Shown in pieces: positions 1,714 through 48,433 of a stretch of DNA of 64,000 nucleotides. Position numbers and translations under genes: made by a program. Origin of the DNA: Escherichia phage PBECO4; the sequence record KC295538; one strand, given 5' to 3'. The notes below the pieces were generated by a model. The model worked only from the letters and a program-made list of their open reading frames with translations. It ran no database searches and was not told the origin of the DNA. The first letter of the stretch is position 1. Each line of letters opens with the position of its first letter.

Positions 1714-2502
1714 TTAAATGTTAGTAGTATAGTACTTGATTTCGTTTTGAATTGCAAGTTCTATTTGTTTATTGAAAAGAATTCCAAACTCTTTGATTGA
1801 TTCACAATCGAATTCAATAGAAAAAGTATACTCTGGTATACGTACATTGTCAATACCCAAATACTCTTTTATGTAAATTTTAATGAGTTCACATAGTGCA
1901 GTACTAAGACATTGAATTTCAAAATGTTTTGCACCTTTGTCAAAATACTTGAATGCATCAATATCACCTACAATAAAACTATTCTTTAATGTAGTGAATA
2001 GGTTCTCAGGAAACACGGTAATAGGTGACATTGATTTAAGAATGTATGTATCTTTGGCATTCTTAATGTACTCAATGAAGCAGTAGTTAACGTCAGGCTC
2101 GATTGAACGATCCGCGTTATGATACCAGTGTTTAAACTCACTGTATTCAGCAAACTTATGCTGGCGTAATGCGTTACAATCTTCACACAGTGCAGTCATG
2201 TTCTCTTTATCATTACCGCCCTGAAGACAGTCAAGTACATTATGGTCTAACGTCATGCGTACAAGGCGTTTCCCTTTAAGTACATAAGGTCTGAATTTAT
2301 AACGTTCTTTAGTACTGTGCTTATGTAAAGTGAATACCACATTGGATTCACCACAACAATCACATTTAAAGCCATCACGTGACATTACATGAATGAGTTT
2401 TCGAGTATTTGGACCAAACTCTGATTTGGTAATGTTACCTACAATTTCTGATGGTTTGTAGTATTTTGAATTCCGGCGAATCAATTCATCTATAGTGCTC
2501 AT
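1714..2502 (-). CDS. HNH-family endonuclease (possible homing endonuclease)
   Basis: 262-aa ORF; Cys cluster CDCCGES then HNH-like motif DHNVLDCLQGGNDKENMTALCEDCN. Confidence 0.6.
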   Translation of the reverse strand: MSTIDELIRRNSKYYKPSEIVGNITKSEFGPNTRKLIHVMSRDGFKCDCCGESNVVFTLHKHSTKERYKFRPYVLKGKRLVRMTLDHNVLDCLQGGNDKENMTALCEDCNALRQHKFAEYSEFKHWYHNADRSIEPDVNYCFIEYIKNAKDTYILKSMSPITVFPENLFTTLKNSFIVGDIDAFKYFDKGAKHFEIQCLSTALCELIKIYIKEYLGIDNVRIPEYTFSIEFDCESIKEFGILFNKQIELAIQNEIKYYTTNI

Positions 2503-2503
2503 T

Positions 2504-2734
2504 TTATATTATTCCTTCTTTGTTACAACCTATAATTATTTTTGTAACTTCGATAACTCGTACCAAATGATATCCGTGAAAAAAGTTAAAACCATACATT
2601 TGTGCTAATGCATCGGCTTCAGATTTTGCACGGATACATGATAGATATAATTCTCGTATATCACCATCTAATGATGCTTGTTTCTCGTCATTGATAACAA
2701 TAGCACGAATCTCAAAACGAACACCATAACTCAT
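2504..2734 (-). CDS. hypothetical protein
   Basis: 76-aa ORF. Confidence 0.4.
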   Translation of the reverse strand: MSYGVRFEIRAIVINDEKQASLDGDIRELYLSCIRAKSEADALAQMYGFNFFHGYHLVRVIEVTKIIIGCNKEGII

Positions 2735-2940
2735 TTAGTTTGACCCACAATAAGTTTCTCTTTAGTATTACTATTGTAACACCACATTTGTTCTTTACTA
2801 ACTGTAATCCAAATATCTTTGTTTACTTGTTCGTATGTACTATCACGTAATGCAATGCATTGATTCATGGAATTCATTGGGGTTATTTGTACACCGGAAT
2901 TAACAGAAAAAGCTATTACTAAAAAGATTACTGAATTCAT
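2731..2940 (-). CDS. hypothetical secreted/membrane protein
   Basis: 69-aa ORF; hydrophobic N-terminus. Confidence 0.4.
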   Translation of the reverse strand: MNSVIFLVIAFSVNSGVQITPMNSMNQCIALRDSTYEQVNKDIWITVSKEQMWCYNSNTKEKLIVGQTK

Positions 2941-3557
2941 TGGATATTCCTTAATGGTTAATCATCCATCTCTTCGAGATGTCTGTTCGCTTCTAATACT
3001 ACGTATTCTACGCGAATGATTAATAACTGTCAAGGACTTTTAATATTGACGGGATTTGAGGAAGGGATTTTTCTTCCCCCCCACAAGGAGGGAAATTTGA
3101 CGCTGATGGTATCAGAGCTATTGCATTGAAGATTACTCATAACGAGTGCGAAAGCGGGTCATCCTGTTTCTCTCTACTTCAGTTTCATATGACGGTCTAC
3201 ACTTTTAAACATAGTGTATCTTCATTAAGTATCTATGCAATCAAATACTTAATGTGAGTACTCAAATTCTGGACGCAACTTTCCTGTACAAAATTTGATA
3301 ACTCTCCCTTAGATAATTCGTAAGGTGTTATCCTTATATGTCTATCAAGGAACCACCAGCTATCCTAACGTGGTTCTTTATACAGCCGCATTGCCGTGAG
3401 GGGTTCAAACTATGCCCACATCTAACGGGTTTCTTTTGCTGTTCGCACTGTCGGACTGCTCAACTGCCCTCTACGTTTTCGAGTGGATCAGGTACATGAA
3501 TATCATGCCAACAGAATTGTACAAGATAATTATATCACAAACTTTTACTTCATCCCA
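2941..3557. other. ORF-poor, locally GC-richer region; candidate structured RNA or regulatory region
   Basis: about 620 nt with no convincing ORF on the coding (minus) strand; composition visibly GC-richer than flanks; several short hairpins (e.g. gaaccac...gtggttc at 3347-3375). Confidence 0.3.
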
Positions 3558-3590
3558 TAAAAAAAGGTTGGCTTATGCCAACCTTTTTTC
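3558..3590. terminator. bidirectional intrinsic terminator hairpin
   Basis: aaggttggc-ttat-gccaacctt flanked by A-run and T-run; immediately 3' of sigma-factor gene. Confidence 0.6.
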
Positions 3591-3591
3591 T

Positions 3592-4557
3592 TTAGAAATC
3601 TTCGTATTCGTACCCTTTTGCAAGTACTAGCTTCTTAAGCTTTTGCATAGCTTCACTGTACTTTCGGTGTATTGATGAACGGGATTTAACATATTTTCCA
3701 TTATCATCAACAAAACCATTATCAGCAATCTCACGAAGCGTTTCAGGTTCATATTCACCTAGACCATGAACACGCTGGATAATCTCACGTTCTTTAGTAC
3801 TCAATTCGTTGGTCAGTTCATTGATAGCATAACGCAAAGGTGCACGGATACTATCAACATTGAGGTTAAAATCAGAAGCAGGTGAATGAATAATGTCACC
3901 TAATGTACCATCTGTAACACCGTCTAATGGTGCATCCAGCGAAGTGTATTCGCTTTGAAATAACAAACAATTATTAACATGCTGAATCTCAATCCCAGTA
4001 CCCTCTGAGATTATTTCAGGAGTTGGGCGAACACCATGTTTACGCATATATTCCTGACAGAATCTTTTTACTTTGATCTTATGAACACTCATATAACGTG
4101 GGAAGTGTACCATATAGTTAGCGTCAGAACTTTCGTTATAGACTGTCATGTAAATACTAGAAGAAGCATAGGTAATGAACTTAACATTCTTATTAAGATC
4201 AAAGGTTTTTAGTGCTCTCATGAACCCCTCAACACCATATGAAATCTTATCTTCAAATGGGATATAACAAGTACATTTACTTGCTACATCAATAATCAGT
4301 CCATAATTGTAACGAACTAACAGTTCAGTGTTTTTCTTTACATTGATACCAGCTTGAATATCACGAATTAGATCTTCATTGGAAACATTTGGTGGTCGCT
4401 TAAGTGTAATATTATATTTGAAACTGCTTTGTACTTTACCTTCATTTTCATCTTTATCTTCAACGAAATCTAAGGCTTCTAGTGTGTTGACTTCTTCATT
4501 AGCAAAACATTCATCCAGAACTTCTTCGGCAATTGTATTTAAATCAAGCTTTTTCAC
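3592..4557 (-). CDS. sigma-70 family RNA polymerase sigma factor
   Basis: 321 aa; region-2-like GVEGFMRALKTFDLNKNVKFITYASSSI and region-4-like HTH EREIIQRVHGLGEYEPETLREIADNGF...SRSSIHRKYSEAMQKL. Confidence 0.8.
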   Translation of the reverse strand: MKKLDLNTIAEEVLDECFANEEVNTLEALDFVEDKDENEGKVQSSFKYNITLKRPPNVSNEDLIRDIQAGINVKKNTELLVRYNYGLIIDVASKCTCYIPFEDKISYGVEGFMRALKTFDLNKNVKFITYASSSIYMTVYNESSDANYMVHFPRYMSVHKIKVKRFCQEYMRKHGVRPTPEIISEGTGIEIQHVNNCLLFQSEYTSLDAPLDGVTDGTLGDIIHSPASDFNLNVDSIRAPLRYAINELTNELSTKEREIIQRVHGLGEYEPETLREIADNGFVDDNGKYVKSRSSIHRKYSEAMQKLKKLVLAKGYEYEDF

Positions 4558-15826: not shown

Positions 15827-15916
<90 letters not shown>

Positions 15917-15928
15917 AGAAGTAAGATA

Positions 15929-16029
<101 letters not shown>

Positions 16030-16165
16030 GCCAAGAGTCGGCATAGGTGCAGCACTACAAAGTTCTTCAAGCTGCTTGGCAGTTTCTTCACTTACTTTCA
16101 TATTGACCTCGTTAGATTAAAACCCCCAGTTTTCTTCTTGAACCATAATACACCCCATTCAATGA

Positions 16166-16204
<39 letters not shown>

Positions 16205-16261
16205 GTATTCTACAGCGACCATTTTAGCTAAAGGTGAACTGAGCATACTCGAAGTACCTCT

Positions 16262-16929
<668 letters not shown>

Positions 16930-16944
16930 TTATACCTCGCATTG

Positions 16945-17104
<160 letters not shown>

Positions 17105-17107
17105 GTA

Positions 17108-17233
<126 letters not shown>

Positions 17234-17242
17234 GTAGTATTT

Positions 17243-17602
17243 TCAGAAAAAAACCTTATTCAACACTTTAATTATCACAGAATTTAATTCATGTGGGAAC
17301 ACATTTTCATATACTGTGCGTTTCTGAAATTCATCTTCTTCATCAGCACTTAGCTGGAAGGTAATGTATTGAGCATTTATACTATTTATTATATCACGTA
17401 AAGTGTTATTTGTCCTTTTTATTTCTTCAAATGATTCAAAAACAATTACATCGTCATTTATAATAAATGATTCACCATATTCATTGAAAATGCGAATTCC
17501 AGGATTATCTTTACACCAGTTATTGGTATGGTCTGTTGTTAATTTTGAATTCAAAAATGATTTAAGAAACTCTTCATACTTTGAAATGTCTTTAACACTC
17601 AT
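17243..17602 (-). CDS. EExxFxQxST-motif family paralog
   Basis: C-terminal SADEEDEFQKRTVYENVF. Confidence 0.5.
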   Translation of the reverse strand: MSVKDISKYEEFLKSFLNSKLTTDHTNNWCKDNPGIRIFNEYGESFIINDDVIVFESFEEIKRTNNTLRDIINSINAQYITFQLSADEEDEFQKRTVYENVFPHELNSVIIKVLNKVFF

Positions 17603-17964
17603 ATCACCAACTTTAATTAAAAAAATGGATGGTGACGCTTTTAAACGCCGCTGTTAATTCAGCTTTATAACCACCCGTTTTAACTTACCTTTCGGCTACC
17701 TTGACGTGGGGCGTACAGGCTACTAAAAGCAACTTCTGTAAACATATTTCCACGCCTTACCCTTTTAAATAAAAGTCCATCCGGTTTTCCAGTTTGGTGA
17801 AGGACTTTCACCTCTAGTTTCAACCTGCTAGTCAAGTAATAATTGCCTATCGTCCAATTATCAAACCCGTCTAGGTTAACATTCACCACTTCCTAGAGTA
17901 CCAGAGATCTTGTTCTGGTTAGCATCGACGTAACTTACACCATATACGTCTGATTGTGGAATTC
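17603..17964 (-). ncRNA. candidate structured RNA or long 5' leader (alternative: 69-aa GTG-initiated ORF 17680..17889)
   Basis: GC-richer than flanks, directly downstream of consensus promoter 17965-17993; hairpin ggtgaa-agtcc-ttcacc; only ORF needs a GTG start with an RBS-like AGGAA abutting it. Confidence 0.3.
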
Positions 17965-18002
<38 letters not shown>

Positions 18003-18035
18003 ACAAATCTGGACGTTCATCTTTAAACATATTAA

Positions 18036-18059
18036 TATCCTCAGTACTGAATTATTTAG

Positions 18060-18063
<4 letters not shown>
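18036..18063 (-). repeat. 23-nt promoter-repeat copy 2 (poor -10)
   Basis: plus-strand cagtactgaattatttagtcaag; TTGACT present but no good -10 at 16-18 nt spacing. Confidence 0.45.
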
Positions 18064-18473
<410 letters not shown>

Positions 18474-18481
18474 CTTTTTTT

Positions 18482-18645
<164 letters not shown>

Positions 18646-18649
<4 letters not shown>

Positions 18650-18810
18650 GTTCGTACCATTATTTCAATAAAGAACCACGGATACGCTTCATGGTTTATA
18701 AGTTTATCGTATTCTGCTGGGTCTGACATGATTTCCCAATGATACTTTCTCCAGTTACCGAAACCTGCATATCTAAAATTAATGTCATTCATCCATTCTT
18801 CATGCGTCAT
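18646..18810 (-). CDS. MTHEEW-family small protein (copy a)
   Basis: 54-aa ORF by manual translation; MTHEEWMNDINFRYAGFGNW...WFFIEI; AAAGG RBS upstream. Confidence 0.45.
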
Positions 18811-18814
18811 GGTT

Positions 18815-18916
<102 letters not shown>

Positions 18917-18920
18917 ATTT

Positions 18921-19036
<116 letters not shown>

Positions 19037-19053
19037 ATGTGATGTCCCATTAT

Positions 19054-19326
19054 TTATGATTCAGTTTGAGGATTAAATTTGATAAATTCATCTTTATGTT
19101 CATCTTCAAACGCAATATCTTCTACGTATTCAGGCCAAATCGTAGTGTCTCCTTGATAAAAGCGATAATTATCAAATACTGCACTACGCGTTCTTCCCTG
19201 TTCCCAGCCAATCGTACAGTCATGATATACATCCCCACTACTTGTACGAATACTAATGGTGTCTTGAGTTTCATAAAGAACTTCAATGCGTGTGTTACGA
19301 TTTACGTTGAATTTTTCAAAATGCAT
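19054..19326 (-). CDS. hypothetical protein
   Basis: 90-aa ORF. Confidence 0.45.
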   Translation of the reverse strand: MHFEKFNVNRNTRIEVLYETQDTISIRTSSGDVYHDCTIGWEQGRTRSAVFDNYRFYQGDTTIWPEYVEDIAFEDEHKDEFIKFNPQTES

Positions 19327-19379
19327 AATATTATCCTCATCTAGAACCAGTGATAATCATTATATAATGAATTAATGAT

Positions 19380-19706
19380 TTATGCAAGTGTTTTAGATAC
19401 ACCGACACCAATAATTCCAGTGATATCGATATGGATATTGGCAAGTTGATTACTATCATATGGGTTTGTTTCTGTAATAACCAATGTTGTATCATTGACT
19501 AAAACCACAGTACCTTTTACACGATAACCATGTAGTAGTACTTGAACCTCATCTTCAGGTTTTAATGATTGAATAACTTCAAATAAAGTTGTTTCCATTT
19601 TTTGTATTCCTTGTTTAGTTTTGATTATTTGACTTTCTAAATGCCAGTTCGCATATAAACCAGGGTTTTCTGGTATCCAAAACATATGACCTGAAAAGAT
19701 TTTCAT
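19380..19706 (-). CDS. hypothetical protein (true start may be internal Met near 19598)
   Basis: 108-aa ORF; 5' part overlaps MTHEEW copy c in another frame. Confidence 0.4.
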   Translation of the reverse strand: MKIFSGHMFWIPENPGLYANWHLESQIIKTKQGIQKMETTLFEVIQSLKPEDEVQVLLHGYRVKGTVVLVNDTTLVITETNPYDSNQLANIHIDITGIIGVGVSKTLA

Positions 19707-19815
19707 CTCTTAATATATCATAATGTACCTGACGAATGCCATTCCCAAAGCAGTCATGTTCTTTATGCTGTTTGGACATCCATTCTTCGTGTGTCATTTT
19801 ATGTATCCAGTACAA
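19615..19815 (-). CDS. MTHEEW-family small protein (copy c)
   Basis: MYWIHKMTHEEWMSKQHKEHDCFGNGIRQVHYDILRDENLFRSYVLD...WFICELAFR. Confidence 0.55.
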   Translation of the reverse strand: MYWIHKMTHEEWMSKQHKEHDCFGNGIRQVHYDILRDENLFRSYVLDTRKPWFICELAFRKSNNQN

Positions 19816-20014
19816 TTAAGTGCTGCATCTCTTCTTTTGTAAAGAAAGCACTGTCATGAACAATAGAACCAGTCTTATCAACTACATAGTACAGGTTTCC
19901 ATATTGTTGAACATCAATTCCGTCAATTTCAATTCGTGGAAAATTTTGGACAATACAGTCTGCACCGAAAACCTCACCAAAAAAGTTTCCTGCTGGATTG
20001 ATAATGACTTTCAT
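19799..20014 (-). CDS. hypothetical protein
   Basis: 71-aa ORF. Confidence 0.45.
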   Translation of the reverse strand: MKVIINPAGNFFGEVFGADCIVQNFPRIEIDGIDVQQYGNLYYVVDKTGSIVHDSAFFTKEEMQHLIVLDT

Positions 20015-20032
20015 ATTAAATCACCTTTATTG

Positions 20033-20114
<82 letters not shown>

Positions 20115-47851: not shown

Positions 47852-47914
47852 ATCAAAATCCTTTTATTGTATGTGTGATATAAGCCTACAATAAACATTA
47901 TATCACATGTTTTT

Positions 47915-48433
47915 CTACCATTTCAAAAATTCGTTAACATCAAGTTCGTACTTCAATGAATCTACCATATGTAGTCCAATCAAAAACAAACAGTATGATG
48001 CAACAGAGCTTCCACGACCTAGACCCCAAAAGATCTCATTTTCTTCCATATAATCAACAAGCCATATCATACATCTTAGTAGCTTTGTCATATTATAATA
48101 TTCATATAAATCAAGTTCATACTCAACACGTTTTCGTGCTTCATCGGATGTGCATTTTTGTAAGAAAAAGTCACGCAGATTTATATTGTCGTATACTGGA
48201 TCATATCGCCACAGTTCATGATTTTTATCATGCTCAATTGTATAATCCAGCATACGTTGTTCTAAGCCAAATTTTTTACAGTTATCATTGAATTTCAACC
48301 TTTCAGGTTCATCAATTTCCTGCAATTGTAAGTACTGGATATCTGCACCGCAATTGATTGCATAAACAACTGCGTTAAGATTACATTTCACATCACCATT
48401 GGGACTTATAAATCTGTTTCCTTGTACTTTCAT
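47915..48433 (-). CDS. hypothetical protein with DnaE (Pol III alpha)-like segment
   Basis: 172 aa; C-terminal IWLVDYMEENEIFWGLGRGSSVASYCLFLIGLHMVDSLKYELDVNEFL resembles the DnaE segment ...GPGRGSGAGSLVAYAL.ITD.DPLEFDLLFERFL. Confidence 0.45.
   Translation of the reverse strand: MKVQGNRFISPNGDVKCNLNAVVYAINCGADIQYLQLQEIDEPERLKFNDNCKKFGLEQRMLDYTIEHDKNHELWRYDPVYDNINLRDFFLQKCTSDEARKRVEYELDLYEYYNMTKLLRCMIWLVDYMEENEIFWGLGRGSSVASYCLFLIGLHMVDSLKYELDVNEFLKW

Follow-up and report, generated by a model that had tools for sequence, protein, structure and literature searches.

Locus and coding potential

Escherichia phage PBECO4 is an Asteriusvirus, one of the 121Q/PBECO4-like or 'Rak2-like' jumbo phages, and in the 64,000 nucleotides (nt) of its genome that we analysed (sequence record KC295538, hereafter the window) some 600 nt lie without an evident gene between the first downstream open reading frame (ORF; start at 2940) and a sigma-factor gene (3592-4557, minus strand). 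What is such a stretch kept for? Our analyses indicate that it almost certainly carries a gene, predicted on the minus strand at about 3522-3046, for a structured RNA with about 17 helices, four of them pseudoknots, supported by compensatory changes among 54 distinct homologues. We favour, with a probability of about 60%, the reading that this is a self-contained gene for a folded non-coding RNA (ncRNA) of about 470 nt that acts in trans, as the core of a ribonucleoprotein (RNP) or as a ribozyme-like or ligand-binding RNA. The coordinates of the element and its copies are collected in Table 1; over positions 2700-3800 the identity is 100% with Salmonella phage SD-2_S15 and 98% with Escherichia phage 121Q.

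The stretch does not behave as a protein-coding gene. A search for minus-strand ORFs of at least 30 amino acids (aa) inside 2941-3591 returned none, and the ORFs listed for the same interval are all short, at 36-72 aa; the plus strand has four of them and the minus strand one (3030-3140), so that the two counts differ for the minus strand. In 42 homologues the longest run without a stop codon, whatever the frame, has a median length of 75 aa, none of the short ORFs is conserved, the insertions and deletions among homologues have lengths that are not multiples of three, and the compensatory changes follow helices. The original prediction, made from the letters alone, had seen no credible minus-strand ORF in 2941-3557, and the ORF list and the stop-free lengths bear this out. 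It had also called the segment markedly richer in guanine and cytosine (GC) than its flanks. The GC content is indeed raised, at 0.395 (2941-3557) and 0.415 (3036-3493) against a window mean of 0.331 (standard deviation about 0.03), which places it at z = 2.5-2.9 and the 99.4-99.7th percentile among windows of the same size; 'markedly' was an overstatement, the peaks in 200-nt windows reaching 0.42-0.46. An average GC content together with a conserved protein gene in related phages was to count against that prediction, and what we found was a raised GC content and no conserved ORF.

A strong bidirectional terminator had been proposed at 3558-3590, and this proved correct. Two 13-nt arms (3560-3572 and 3577-3589) are 100% complementary around a 4-nt loop, with A6 before and T6 after, so that the hairpin precedes a U-run on either strand. 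Phages G17 (ARNOLD, -13.6) and UE-S1 carry a terminator annotation at the equivalent site; a simple consensus terminator scan did not report 3560-3589.

A conserved fold on the minus strand

RNAalifold on full-length MAFFT alignments gave a slight preference for the minus strand (-144.9 versus -136.2) together with spurious long-range pairs, and it was replaced by hand-read helices, a column-pair scan and pair counting. Helices were read by eye from the alignments and written down, and their pairs were then counted against 500 shuffles and against controls with slid partners. In the first alignment, A1 (42 sequences; 87 pairs in 15 helices), 85.1% of cells were paired, compared with 71.2% after shuffling, and the covariation score was 0.410 versus 0.156, with slid controls at or below 0.119 and 62 pairs showing changes on both sides. 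In the second, A2 (27 sequences; 89 pairs in 17 helices), registers were corrected and two short pseudoknot helices added; the paired cells rose to 91.7% (75.0% shuffled) and the score to 0.475 (0.166 shuffled; slid controls at or below 0.113), and 64 of the 89 pairs had changed on both sides. In neither alignment did any of the 500 shuffles equal the real data, whether in paired fraction, in covariation score or in the number of pairs changed on both sides, and the slid controls were three to four times lower.

Two further results carry the fold. A blind scan of A1 for covarying column pairs recovered P1, P4, P5, the base of P7, P8, P9, P11, P12, P13 and PK1-PK4 (PK, pseudoknot). In addition, 12 divergent copies from metagenomes and bacterial genomes, all outside the model building, paired in 939 of 1055 cells (89%), with PK2 at 99% and PK3, PK4, P4, P4b and P13 at 100%. 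Double-sided changes are many in PK1, P11, P13 and PK2. On the MAFFT alignments no single register holds for P14 and the outer part of P8, and P6, P14 and outer P8 are weakly supported there. An ncRNA had been one option of the original prediction, and the covariation, the multi-pseudoknot minus-strand fold and the promoter described below support it strongly.

The same pairs define the sense strand. The seven cleanest helices contain 45 G·U wobbles and no A·C, and all A1 pairs together contain 207 G·U versus 141 A·C, the A·C cells being concentrated in misaligned helices. Because G·U is tolerated and A·C is not, the RNA must be read from the minus strand of the window, as are the neighbouring genes.

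In the window the element model matches 3562-3027 (nhmmer, E = 9e-116). Between the helices stand invariant single-stranded blocks, GAAAAYGUA, UAUAAAG, GAUAGA, UAAGGGAG, CGACCGU and GAAAC..ACCCGC. The 3' strand of PK2, AUGCAAU, directly follows P11, and in box 2 the pattern CAAA.C..GUCA is invariant in all 54 copies, the bacterial ones included. By eye, no covariation was seen for pairing of the 3' tail (box 2) with UAAGGGAG or with the GAUAGA or GAUGAG junction.

A separate observation concerns a hairpin module at 3264-3296 (minus strand), UUUGGAC-A(N2)AAAG(N)U(N)C-GUCCAAA, with a conserved 11-nt loop. It sits at the tip of P7, of P12 or of both, depending on the copy (for example L024, L028, L137 and L128), and by analogy with large structural RNAs it behaves like a swappable peripheral element.

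Table 1. Coordinates of the predicted RNA, its parts and its copies (window positions unless a genome or record is named; helix strands are given as one strand with the other).
Feature	Coordinates	Strand	Remarks
Bidirectional intrinsic terminator of sigma-factor gene	3559-3589	both	upstream boundary of RNA unit
Predicted promoter of RNA	3529-3557	-	TGGGAT (3557-3552), 17-nt spacer, extended -10 TGATATAAT (3537-3529)
Predicted structured ncRNA, ~470 nt	3046-3522	-	conservation runs to 3046
5' domain	3382-3514	-	P1, P2, P3, PK3, P4, P4b, 5' strand of PK4
P1	3514-3508 with 3454-3448	-	84.5% paired; encloses P2 and P3
P2	3507-3503 with 3499-3495	-	variable hairpin, read by eye
P3	3491-3481 with 3471-3464	-	96% paired; conserved loop GAAAACGUA 3480-3472
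PK3	3459-3457 with 3447-3445	-	100% paired; 3 base pairs, brackets 3' strand of P1
P4	3442-3438 with 3386-3382	-	100% paired
P4b	3428-3425 with 3397-3394	-	100% paired; P4 and P4b surround variable insert
PK4	AUG 3391-3389 with CAU 3340-3338	-	100% paired
Central domain	3198-3376	-	P5, GAUAGA junction, 3' strand of PK4, P6, UAAGGGAG, P7, P8, P9
P5	3376-3370 with 3356-3350	-	87.7-97% paired; compensatory changes in every pair
Junction GAUAGA	3346-3341	-	
P6	3335-3332 with 3325-3322	-	only 75% paired on MAFFT alignment
Invariant UAAGGGAG	3311-3304	-	
P7 and optional hairpin module	3304-3286 with 3274-3256	-	base of P7 recovered de novo
P8	3254-3242 with 3235-3223	-	inner stem 93% paired; loop AUUGCAU (3241-3235) is 5' strand of PK2
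P9	3218-3214 with 3202-3198	-	90% paired
3' pseudoknot core	3120-3193	-	PK1, P11, P13, P12, 3' strand of PK2; all recovered de novo
PK1	GUCAU 3193-3189 with AUGAC 3162-3158 (P13 loop)	-	95.5-100% paired
P11	3181-3177 with 3131-3127	-	99-100% paired; encloses P13 and P12
P13	GAGAG 3174-3170 with CUUUC 3154-3150	-	100% paired
P12	3147-3144 with 3138-3135	-	
PK2, 3' strand AUGCAAU	3126-3120	-	pairs with P8 loop; 99-99.7% paired; also inverted repeat I8
P14, weak short hairpin	3115-3111 with 3107-3103	-	register shifts between copies; 29% paired, without statistical support
Conserved box 1, AUCAGCGUCAA	3107-3097	-	invariant or nearly so in all copies
P15, C/G-rich hairpin	UUCCCUCC 3094-3087 with GGGGGGAA 3081-3074	-	85-87% paired; U·G wobbles possible on minus strand only
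Conserved box 2, CAAAUCCCGUCAA	3046-3058	-	near-repeat of box 1; last conserved block of element
Separate sigma-70 promoter of downstream genes	3005-3033	-	TTGACA-17-TAGAAT, 11 of 12 consensus matches; first ORF starts at 2940
121Q copy c1 (the window copy)	121Q 90264-90789		HNH gene nearby
121Q copy c2	121Q 192844-193316		between gp415 and gp416; no HNH among annotated neighbours
121Q copy c3	121Q 326612-327060		adjoins endonuclease VII; flanked by two opposite-strand genes
121Q copy c4	121Q 247522-247923		HNH gene gp513 about 0.9 kb off
121Q copies, positions	90, 193, 247, 327 kb		
CBB copies, positions	32, 174, 258, 336 kb		
Serratia BF copies, positions	30, 174, 259, 335 kb		
Yersinia fHe-Yen9-04 copies, positions	24, 174, 260, 335 kb		
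E. coli LR-29-1 island (L137)	NZ_AP027515.1 3473307-3485513		next to ffs; RNA at L137:5885-6548
Buttiauxella metagenome-assembled genome, copy	L168:2744-3404		order integrase, RNA, convergent CI-like S24 repressor with Cro-like partner
Enterobacteriaceae metagenome-assembled genome, copy	L200:6378-7043		order thiMD (island edge), RNA, convergent CI-like repressor with Cro-like partner

Copies in jumbo phages

A blastn search with window 3034-3560 matched some 430-460 nt, at about 3036-3493 of the window, with about 70% identity in 60 phage records, at 3-5 places per genome; a second query brought 69 records, including partial matches in RaK2 and K64-1. The hosts of the phages in the 60 records are Escherichia, Salmonella, Erwinia, Yersinia, Serratia, Pectobacterium, Cronobacter, Xanthomonas and Klebsiella. 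The sites are nearly always unannotated or lie under short 'hypothetical proteins', and UE-S1 labels part of one as 'repeat_region'; dozens of genome records thus leave the locus without annotation or misannotate it. Further copies came from pattern scans of IMG/VR followed by nhmmer filtering, which gave at least 43 distinct full-length copies in 14 groups at 75% identity, the groups being about 55-68% identical to one another.

The window holds a single copy, and the whole 121Q genome holds four, in one orientation and each in a gene-free gap of 600-840 nt. In the genomes that were mapped, all copies within a genome are on the same strand, with a spacing of 55-145 kb; six genomes have at least four copies and the others at least 2-3, pattern scans giving a lower bound. 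Orthologous copies hold their positions across genera, and CBB, Serratia BF, Yersinia fHe-Yen9-04 and others share all four. This conservation of position suggests that the copies are ancient paralogues under purifying selection and not recent insertions.

Copies in bacterial islands

The element also occurs in integrase-bearing islands of a few Enterobacteriaceae. Full-length copies, with promoter, P15 and both boxes, were found in 2 of 5426 complete E. coli genomes; the counts and the range of bacterial and metagenomic copies are lower bounds. The island of E. coli LR-29-1 carries a tyrosine integrase disrupted by IS3, a resolvase and a candidate defence system, PDC-M45 (DuOB, DUF488 and DUF4326 proteins). 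Judging by gene content, the setting of the two copies from metagenome-assembled genomes (L168 and L200), with a CI-like S24/HTH repressor and a Cro-like partner, is probably a satellite- or prophage-like immunity switch, and the -10 box of both copies reads TGnTATACT. The islands share nothing but the RNA with each other and with 121Q: among the island proteins we found no partner shared with the phages beyond the generic DUF4326 domain, and no replication gene was found in the 8-12 kb inspected. The E. coli copy clusters with the '174-kb' paralogue of the Serratia and Yersinia phages, which suggests capture from a phage.

Dispersal over phages and islands could also be that of mobile DNA without any RNA function, such as a repeat of the miniature inverted-repeat transposable element type, a remnant of an HNH homing cassette, or else a decayed coding gene. 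The element is multi-copy and dispersed, part of it is annotated as a 'repeat_region' in one record, HNH genes lie near c1 and c4, and copies stand in integrative islands of bacteria. The copies, which are 55-70% identical, are nevertheless ancient and orthologously placed, no terminal inverted repeats, other flanking repeats or target-site duplications were found, no ORF is conserved, and no HNH gene was seen among the annotated neighbours of c2 and c3 or among the neighbouring ORFs examined of the island copies. Above all, the compensatory, strand-specific substitutions, with G·U and without A·C, are unlike those of neutral DNA or coding sequence, and the covariation and strand asymmetry already contradict this explanation, which is largely refuted and which we regard as hardly credible. 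The earlier suggestion of a mobile-insertion remnant tied to the HNH endonuclease at 1714-2502 fails with it, because positions are conserved, terminal repeats are absent and the HNH neighbour is inconsistent; the comparison with related phages, meant to find insertion boundaries, showed copies at the same positions across genera, and therefore no recent insertion.

Predicted promoters and transcript ends

The predicted promoter, TGGGAT-N14-TGATATAAT, is placed just past the terminator of the sigma-factor gene, and its extended -10 (the motif TG-n-TATAAT) is kept in every copy. The pattern TGRRAY-N14-TGNTATAAT has three matches in the window against 0.01 expected, all of them on the minus, gene-sense strand. 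The other two exact sites are at 19021-19049 and 47897-47925 (both minus), and tRNA-Ser(tga), at 18921-19010, follows the end of the first of these after 11 nt, which indicates that promoters of this class drive stable-RNA genes. In CBB and GAP32 a 'second promoter' class has been described, with TGAAACG at -35 and a classic -10, and 11 of its 18 sites in CBB stand before DNA-synthesis genes (PMC5259590). By its motifs the predicted promoter of the RNA belongs to this same class, and its position predicts a transcription start at about 3522. The promoter part of the model has further, weaker nhmmer matches at about 24015, 24971, 35639, 54646, 55253, 61362 and 61860, all on the minus strand.

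The sigma-70 promoter that precedes the downstream genes (3033-3005) falls outside the conserved block and does not belong to the RNA family. Between box 1 and P15 most other copies have a hairpin followed by U6, resembling a terminator; it is missing from the window copy, from c2 and from three further paralogue groups, and the bacterial copies have the hairpin but not the U-run.

This arrangement of a folded domain followed in many copies by a hairpin and U-run raises the possibility of a very large cis-regulatory 5' leader, similar to a riboswitch, a T-box or an antiterminator, in which the hairpin would gate the downstream genes. In L128 and L114 the 5' arm of the hairpin overlaps box 1, as in expression platforms, and the window copy, without the terminator, stands before downstream genes on the same strand. 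The neighbourhoods of the other copies speak against a role as leader or riboswitch: the genes that follow c3 of 121Q and the island copies L168 and L200 lie on the opposite strand and are convergent, and the downstream genes differ at all four positions of 121Q. With a separate strong promoter between the element and the next gene, and with island hairpins that have no U-run, we consider a leader very improbable.

On the plus strand at 3043-3075, and at the same place in all copies, there is also a TTGACG/CTGACG motif with a 16-17-nt spacer and TATCAT/TTTCAT, directed into P15. It could be the promoter of a short antisense RNA, or the mere reverse complement of box 2.

Relation to known RNAs

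Is the element a known RNA? In Rfam 15, cmscan of window 2400-4000 at E <=10 gave only weak matches to terminator-type small RNAs at about 3477-3676, far under the gathering scores, and five other copies at E <=1 gave nothing inside the element. It matched no family of that release, among them ROOL, GOLLD, OLE, HEARO, raiA, RNase P, transfer-messenger RNA (tmRNA), 6S, group I and II introns and the self-cleaving ribozymes, and ARAGORN found no tRNA or tmRNA in 2941-3591. Full-text literature searches, jumbo-phage reviews and the genome papers of CBB, Sharanji and fEgEco12 contained no description of the element, although this coverage is incomplete and an earlier description elsewhere is possible. 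As it matches no described RNA family, the element would seem to be a new class of large phage RNA. Its nearest counterparts in kind are ROOL, GOLLD and OLE on the one hand and tmRNA and RNase P RNA on the other, and it is a member of none of them.

RNAs of the ROOL, GOLLD and OLE type are independent genes, often found on phages, prophages and mobile islands and near tRNA genes, and their function is not known. The element is like them, and like raiA and HEARO, in its length of hundreds of nt, its many covarying helices, its pseudoknots and its conserved loops, but the Rfam search shows neither sequence nor structure match to any of the five. Unlike ROOL, GOLLD and OLE, which come from Lactobacillales, rumen and extremophile lineages, it belongs to jumbo myoviruses of Enterobacteriaceae and has four diverged copies per genome at fixed positions. 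ROOL, GOLLD and OLE are reported to form multimers made of RNA only (PMC12286853).

With tmRNA and RNase P RNA the element shares a length of 350-450 nt, several pseudoknots and a promoter of its own, of a class that also drives a tRNA gene. Those RNAs act in trans as the RNA core of an RNP, as is proposed here. It differs from them in lacking an ARAGORN tmRNA call, an Rfam match, a tRNA-like end and a tag ORF. There may be a short resemblance to ACGACC..GCAACAGAGAGCAAACCGCC of E. coli M1 RNA, but no model supports it.

In the Pseudomonas jumbo phage PA5oct, four ORF-free RNAs of 236-619 nt (ncRNA001-004), two of them highly transcribed, have been defined by RNA sequencing (PMC7318152). They resemble the element in being ORF-free RNAs of a phage related to the Rak2/121Q group, and differ in that no structure or family has been described for them.

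Possible function

In the favoured reading, E. coli RNA polymerase would start at about 3522 from the TGRRAY/extended -10 class of promoter, and the transcript, made early or in mid-infection, would fold into a globular core and act in trans, its invariant loops contacting a partner. The four copies would supply dosage, and their divergence would keep the repeats from recombining in a T4-like genome that is prone to recombination. The autonomy of the element is seen in c3 of 121Q, which stands between two opposite-strand genes, and in the island copies followed by a convergent repressor gene; the element appears to work in unrelated genomic contexts.

Several points weigh against this reading. 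The folding energy of the single sequence is unexceptional (z = -1.5 on both strands) and does not discriminate between them. Both ends of the transcript are predictions, the start from the promoter and the 3' end from conservation that reaches 3046. Since the window copy and several paralogue groups have no terminator-like hairpin, the transcript may reach the downstream genes, and since conservation extends beyond that hairpin into P15 and box 2, part of the element could act as DNA or as a longer RNA. In several paralogue groups a covarying hairpin with a U-run also separates the -10 box from P1, an unexpected arrangement if the promoter drives this RNA. Four diverged copies kept for long at fixed positions fit a position-dependent role in cis as well as they fit dosage. 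We identified no partner protein or activity, and the literature searched contained no transcriptome or RNA-sequencing data of any Rak2-like phage. The PA5oct ncRNA001-004 were considered as expressed homologues and rejected, as nhmmer finds no homology to any of them.

The hairpin between the -10 box and P1 is found in L026, L108, L072, L128 and their relatives (alignment A1, columns 8-60), at most about 40 nt from the presumed start. It may be a stabilising 5' stem-loop, an attenuator or the terminator of an upstream gene.

The position-dependent alternative that we take most seriously is an origin of replication, in which the RNA would be a structured primer, like ColE1 RNA II or the R-loop primers of T4, at four origins of a 350-kb genome. 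Near the G/C-rich hairpin and the CGUCAR boxes the RNA would stay hybridised to the DNA and prime leading-strand synthesis, and the islands would have captured the element so that an infecting jumbo phage replicates them. In T4, middle-promoter transcripts serve as primers at oriF and oriG, and ColE1 RNA II needs a defined fold. The element shares with these systems a transcript of about 0.5 kb (here predicted), a dedicated promoter and a G/C-rich element near its 3' part, and with oriF and oriG also the multiple dispersed loci in a T4-like genome and a promoter class tied to DNA-synthesis genes.

Much of the evidence already given can be read in this way. In the mapped genomes up to four copies share one strand, are spaced 55-145 kb apart and hold their positions from genus to genus; a dedicated promoter of the TGAAACG/-10 class stands upstream of the would-be initiation site, and in CBB that class is mostly upstream of DNA-synthesis genes (PMC5259590). 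The phages encode a T4-like replisome with RNase H, UvsW, UvsX and UvsY. Past the folded part, a G6/C4-6 hairpin and two direct CGUCAR boxes are kept even in the island copies, and the inspected 8-12 kb of the islands are without a replication gene.

The fold itself speaks against an origin. RNA pairing is under selection over the whole 450 nt, and four pseudoknots with invariant loops exceed what known primer RNAs need, these being simple hairpins without a conserved multi-pseudoknot core. The cumulative GC skew of 121Q does not shift at the four copies and follows gene direction, no conserved AT-rich unwinding element was seen beside the element, and in many copies a terminator-like hairpin stands ahead of the G/C-rich one. 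For a cis element in replication or packaging, another option of the original prediction, our analyses gave no demonstration, and an origin or primer RNA is the form in which it could hold. An origin module is the main rival to the trans-acting RNA, but we think it unlikely.

Tentatively, and with rather less confidence than in a trans-acting role as such, we suggest that the element may be the first of a new class of large multi-pseudoknot phage RNA, whether a catalytic RNA, an RNA-only or RNP machine, or an origin-defining folded primer RNA, which islands have captured. Integrative defence or satellite islands of Enterobacteriaceae would then perhaps use the RNA to exploit or sabotage jumbo phages, and the presence of the element in integrase-bearing islands, one of them with a candidate defence system, points to an interaction of jumbo phages and mobile elements at the RNA level. 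New large RNAs of complex fold are rare, and RNase P RNA, tmRNA, OLE, GOLLD, ROOL and HEARO each opened new biology. The four fixed copies on one strand bear on how T4-like genomes of 350 kb initiate replication or organise early expression. As the element is present in cultivable E. coli phages (121Q, PBECO4, phAPEC6 and G17), these ideas are directly testable.

Other features

Two further features were noted in passing. The 121Q genome has a gap of about 2 kb without an annotated gene at 135194-137161 (L005:35194-37161), which contains no copy of the RNA. In the window, six tRNA genes (Thr, Asn, Met, Ser, Ser and Gly) were located by ARAGORN at 15837-20112 on the minus, gene-sense strand.

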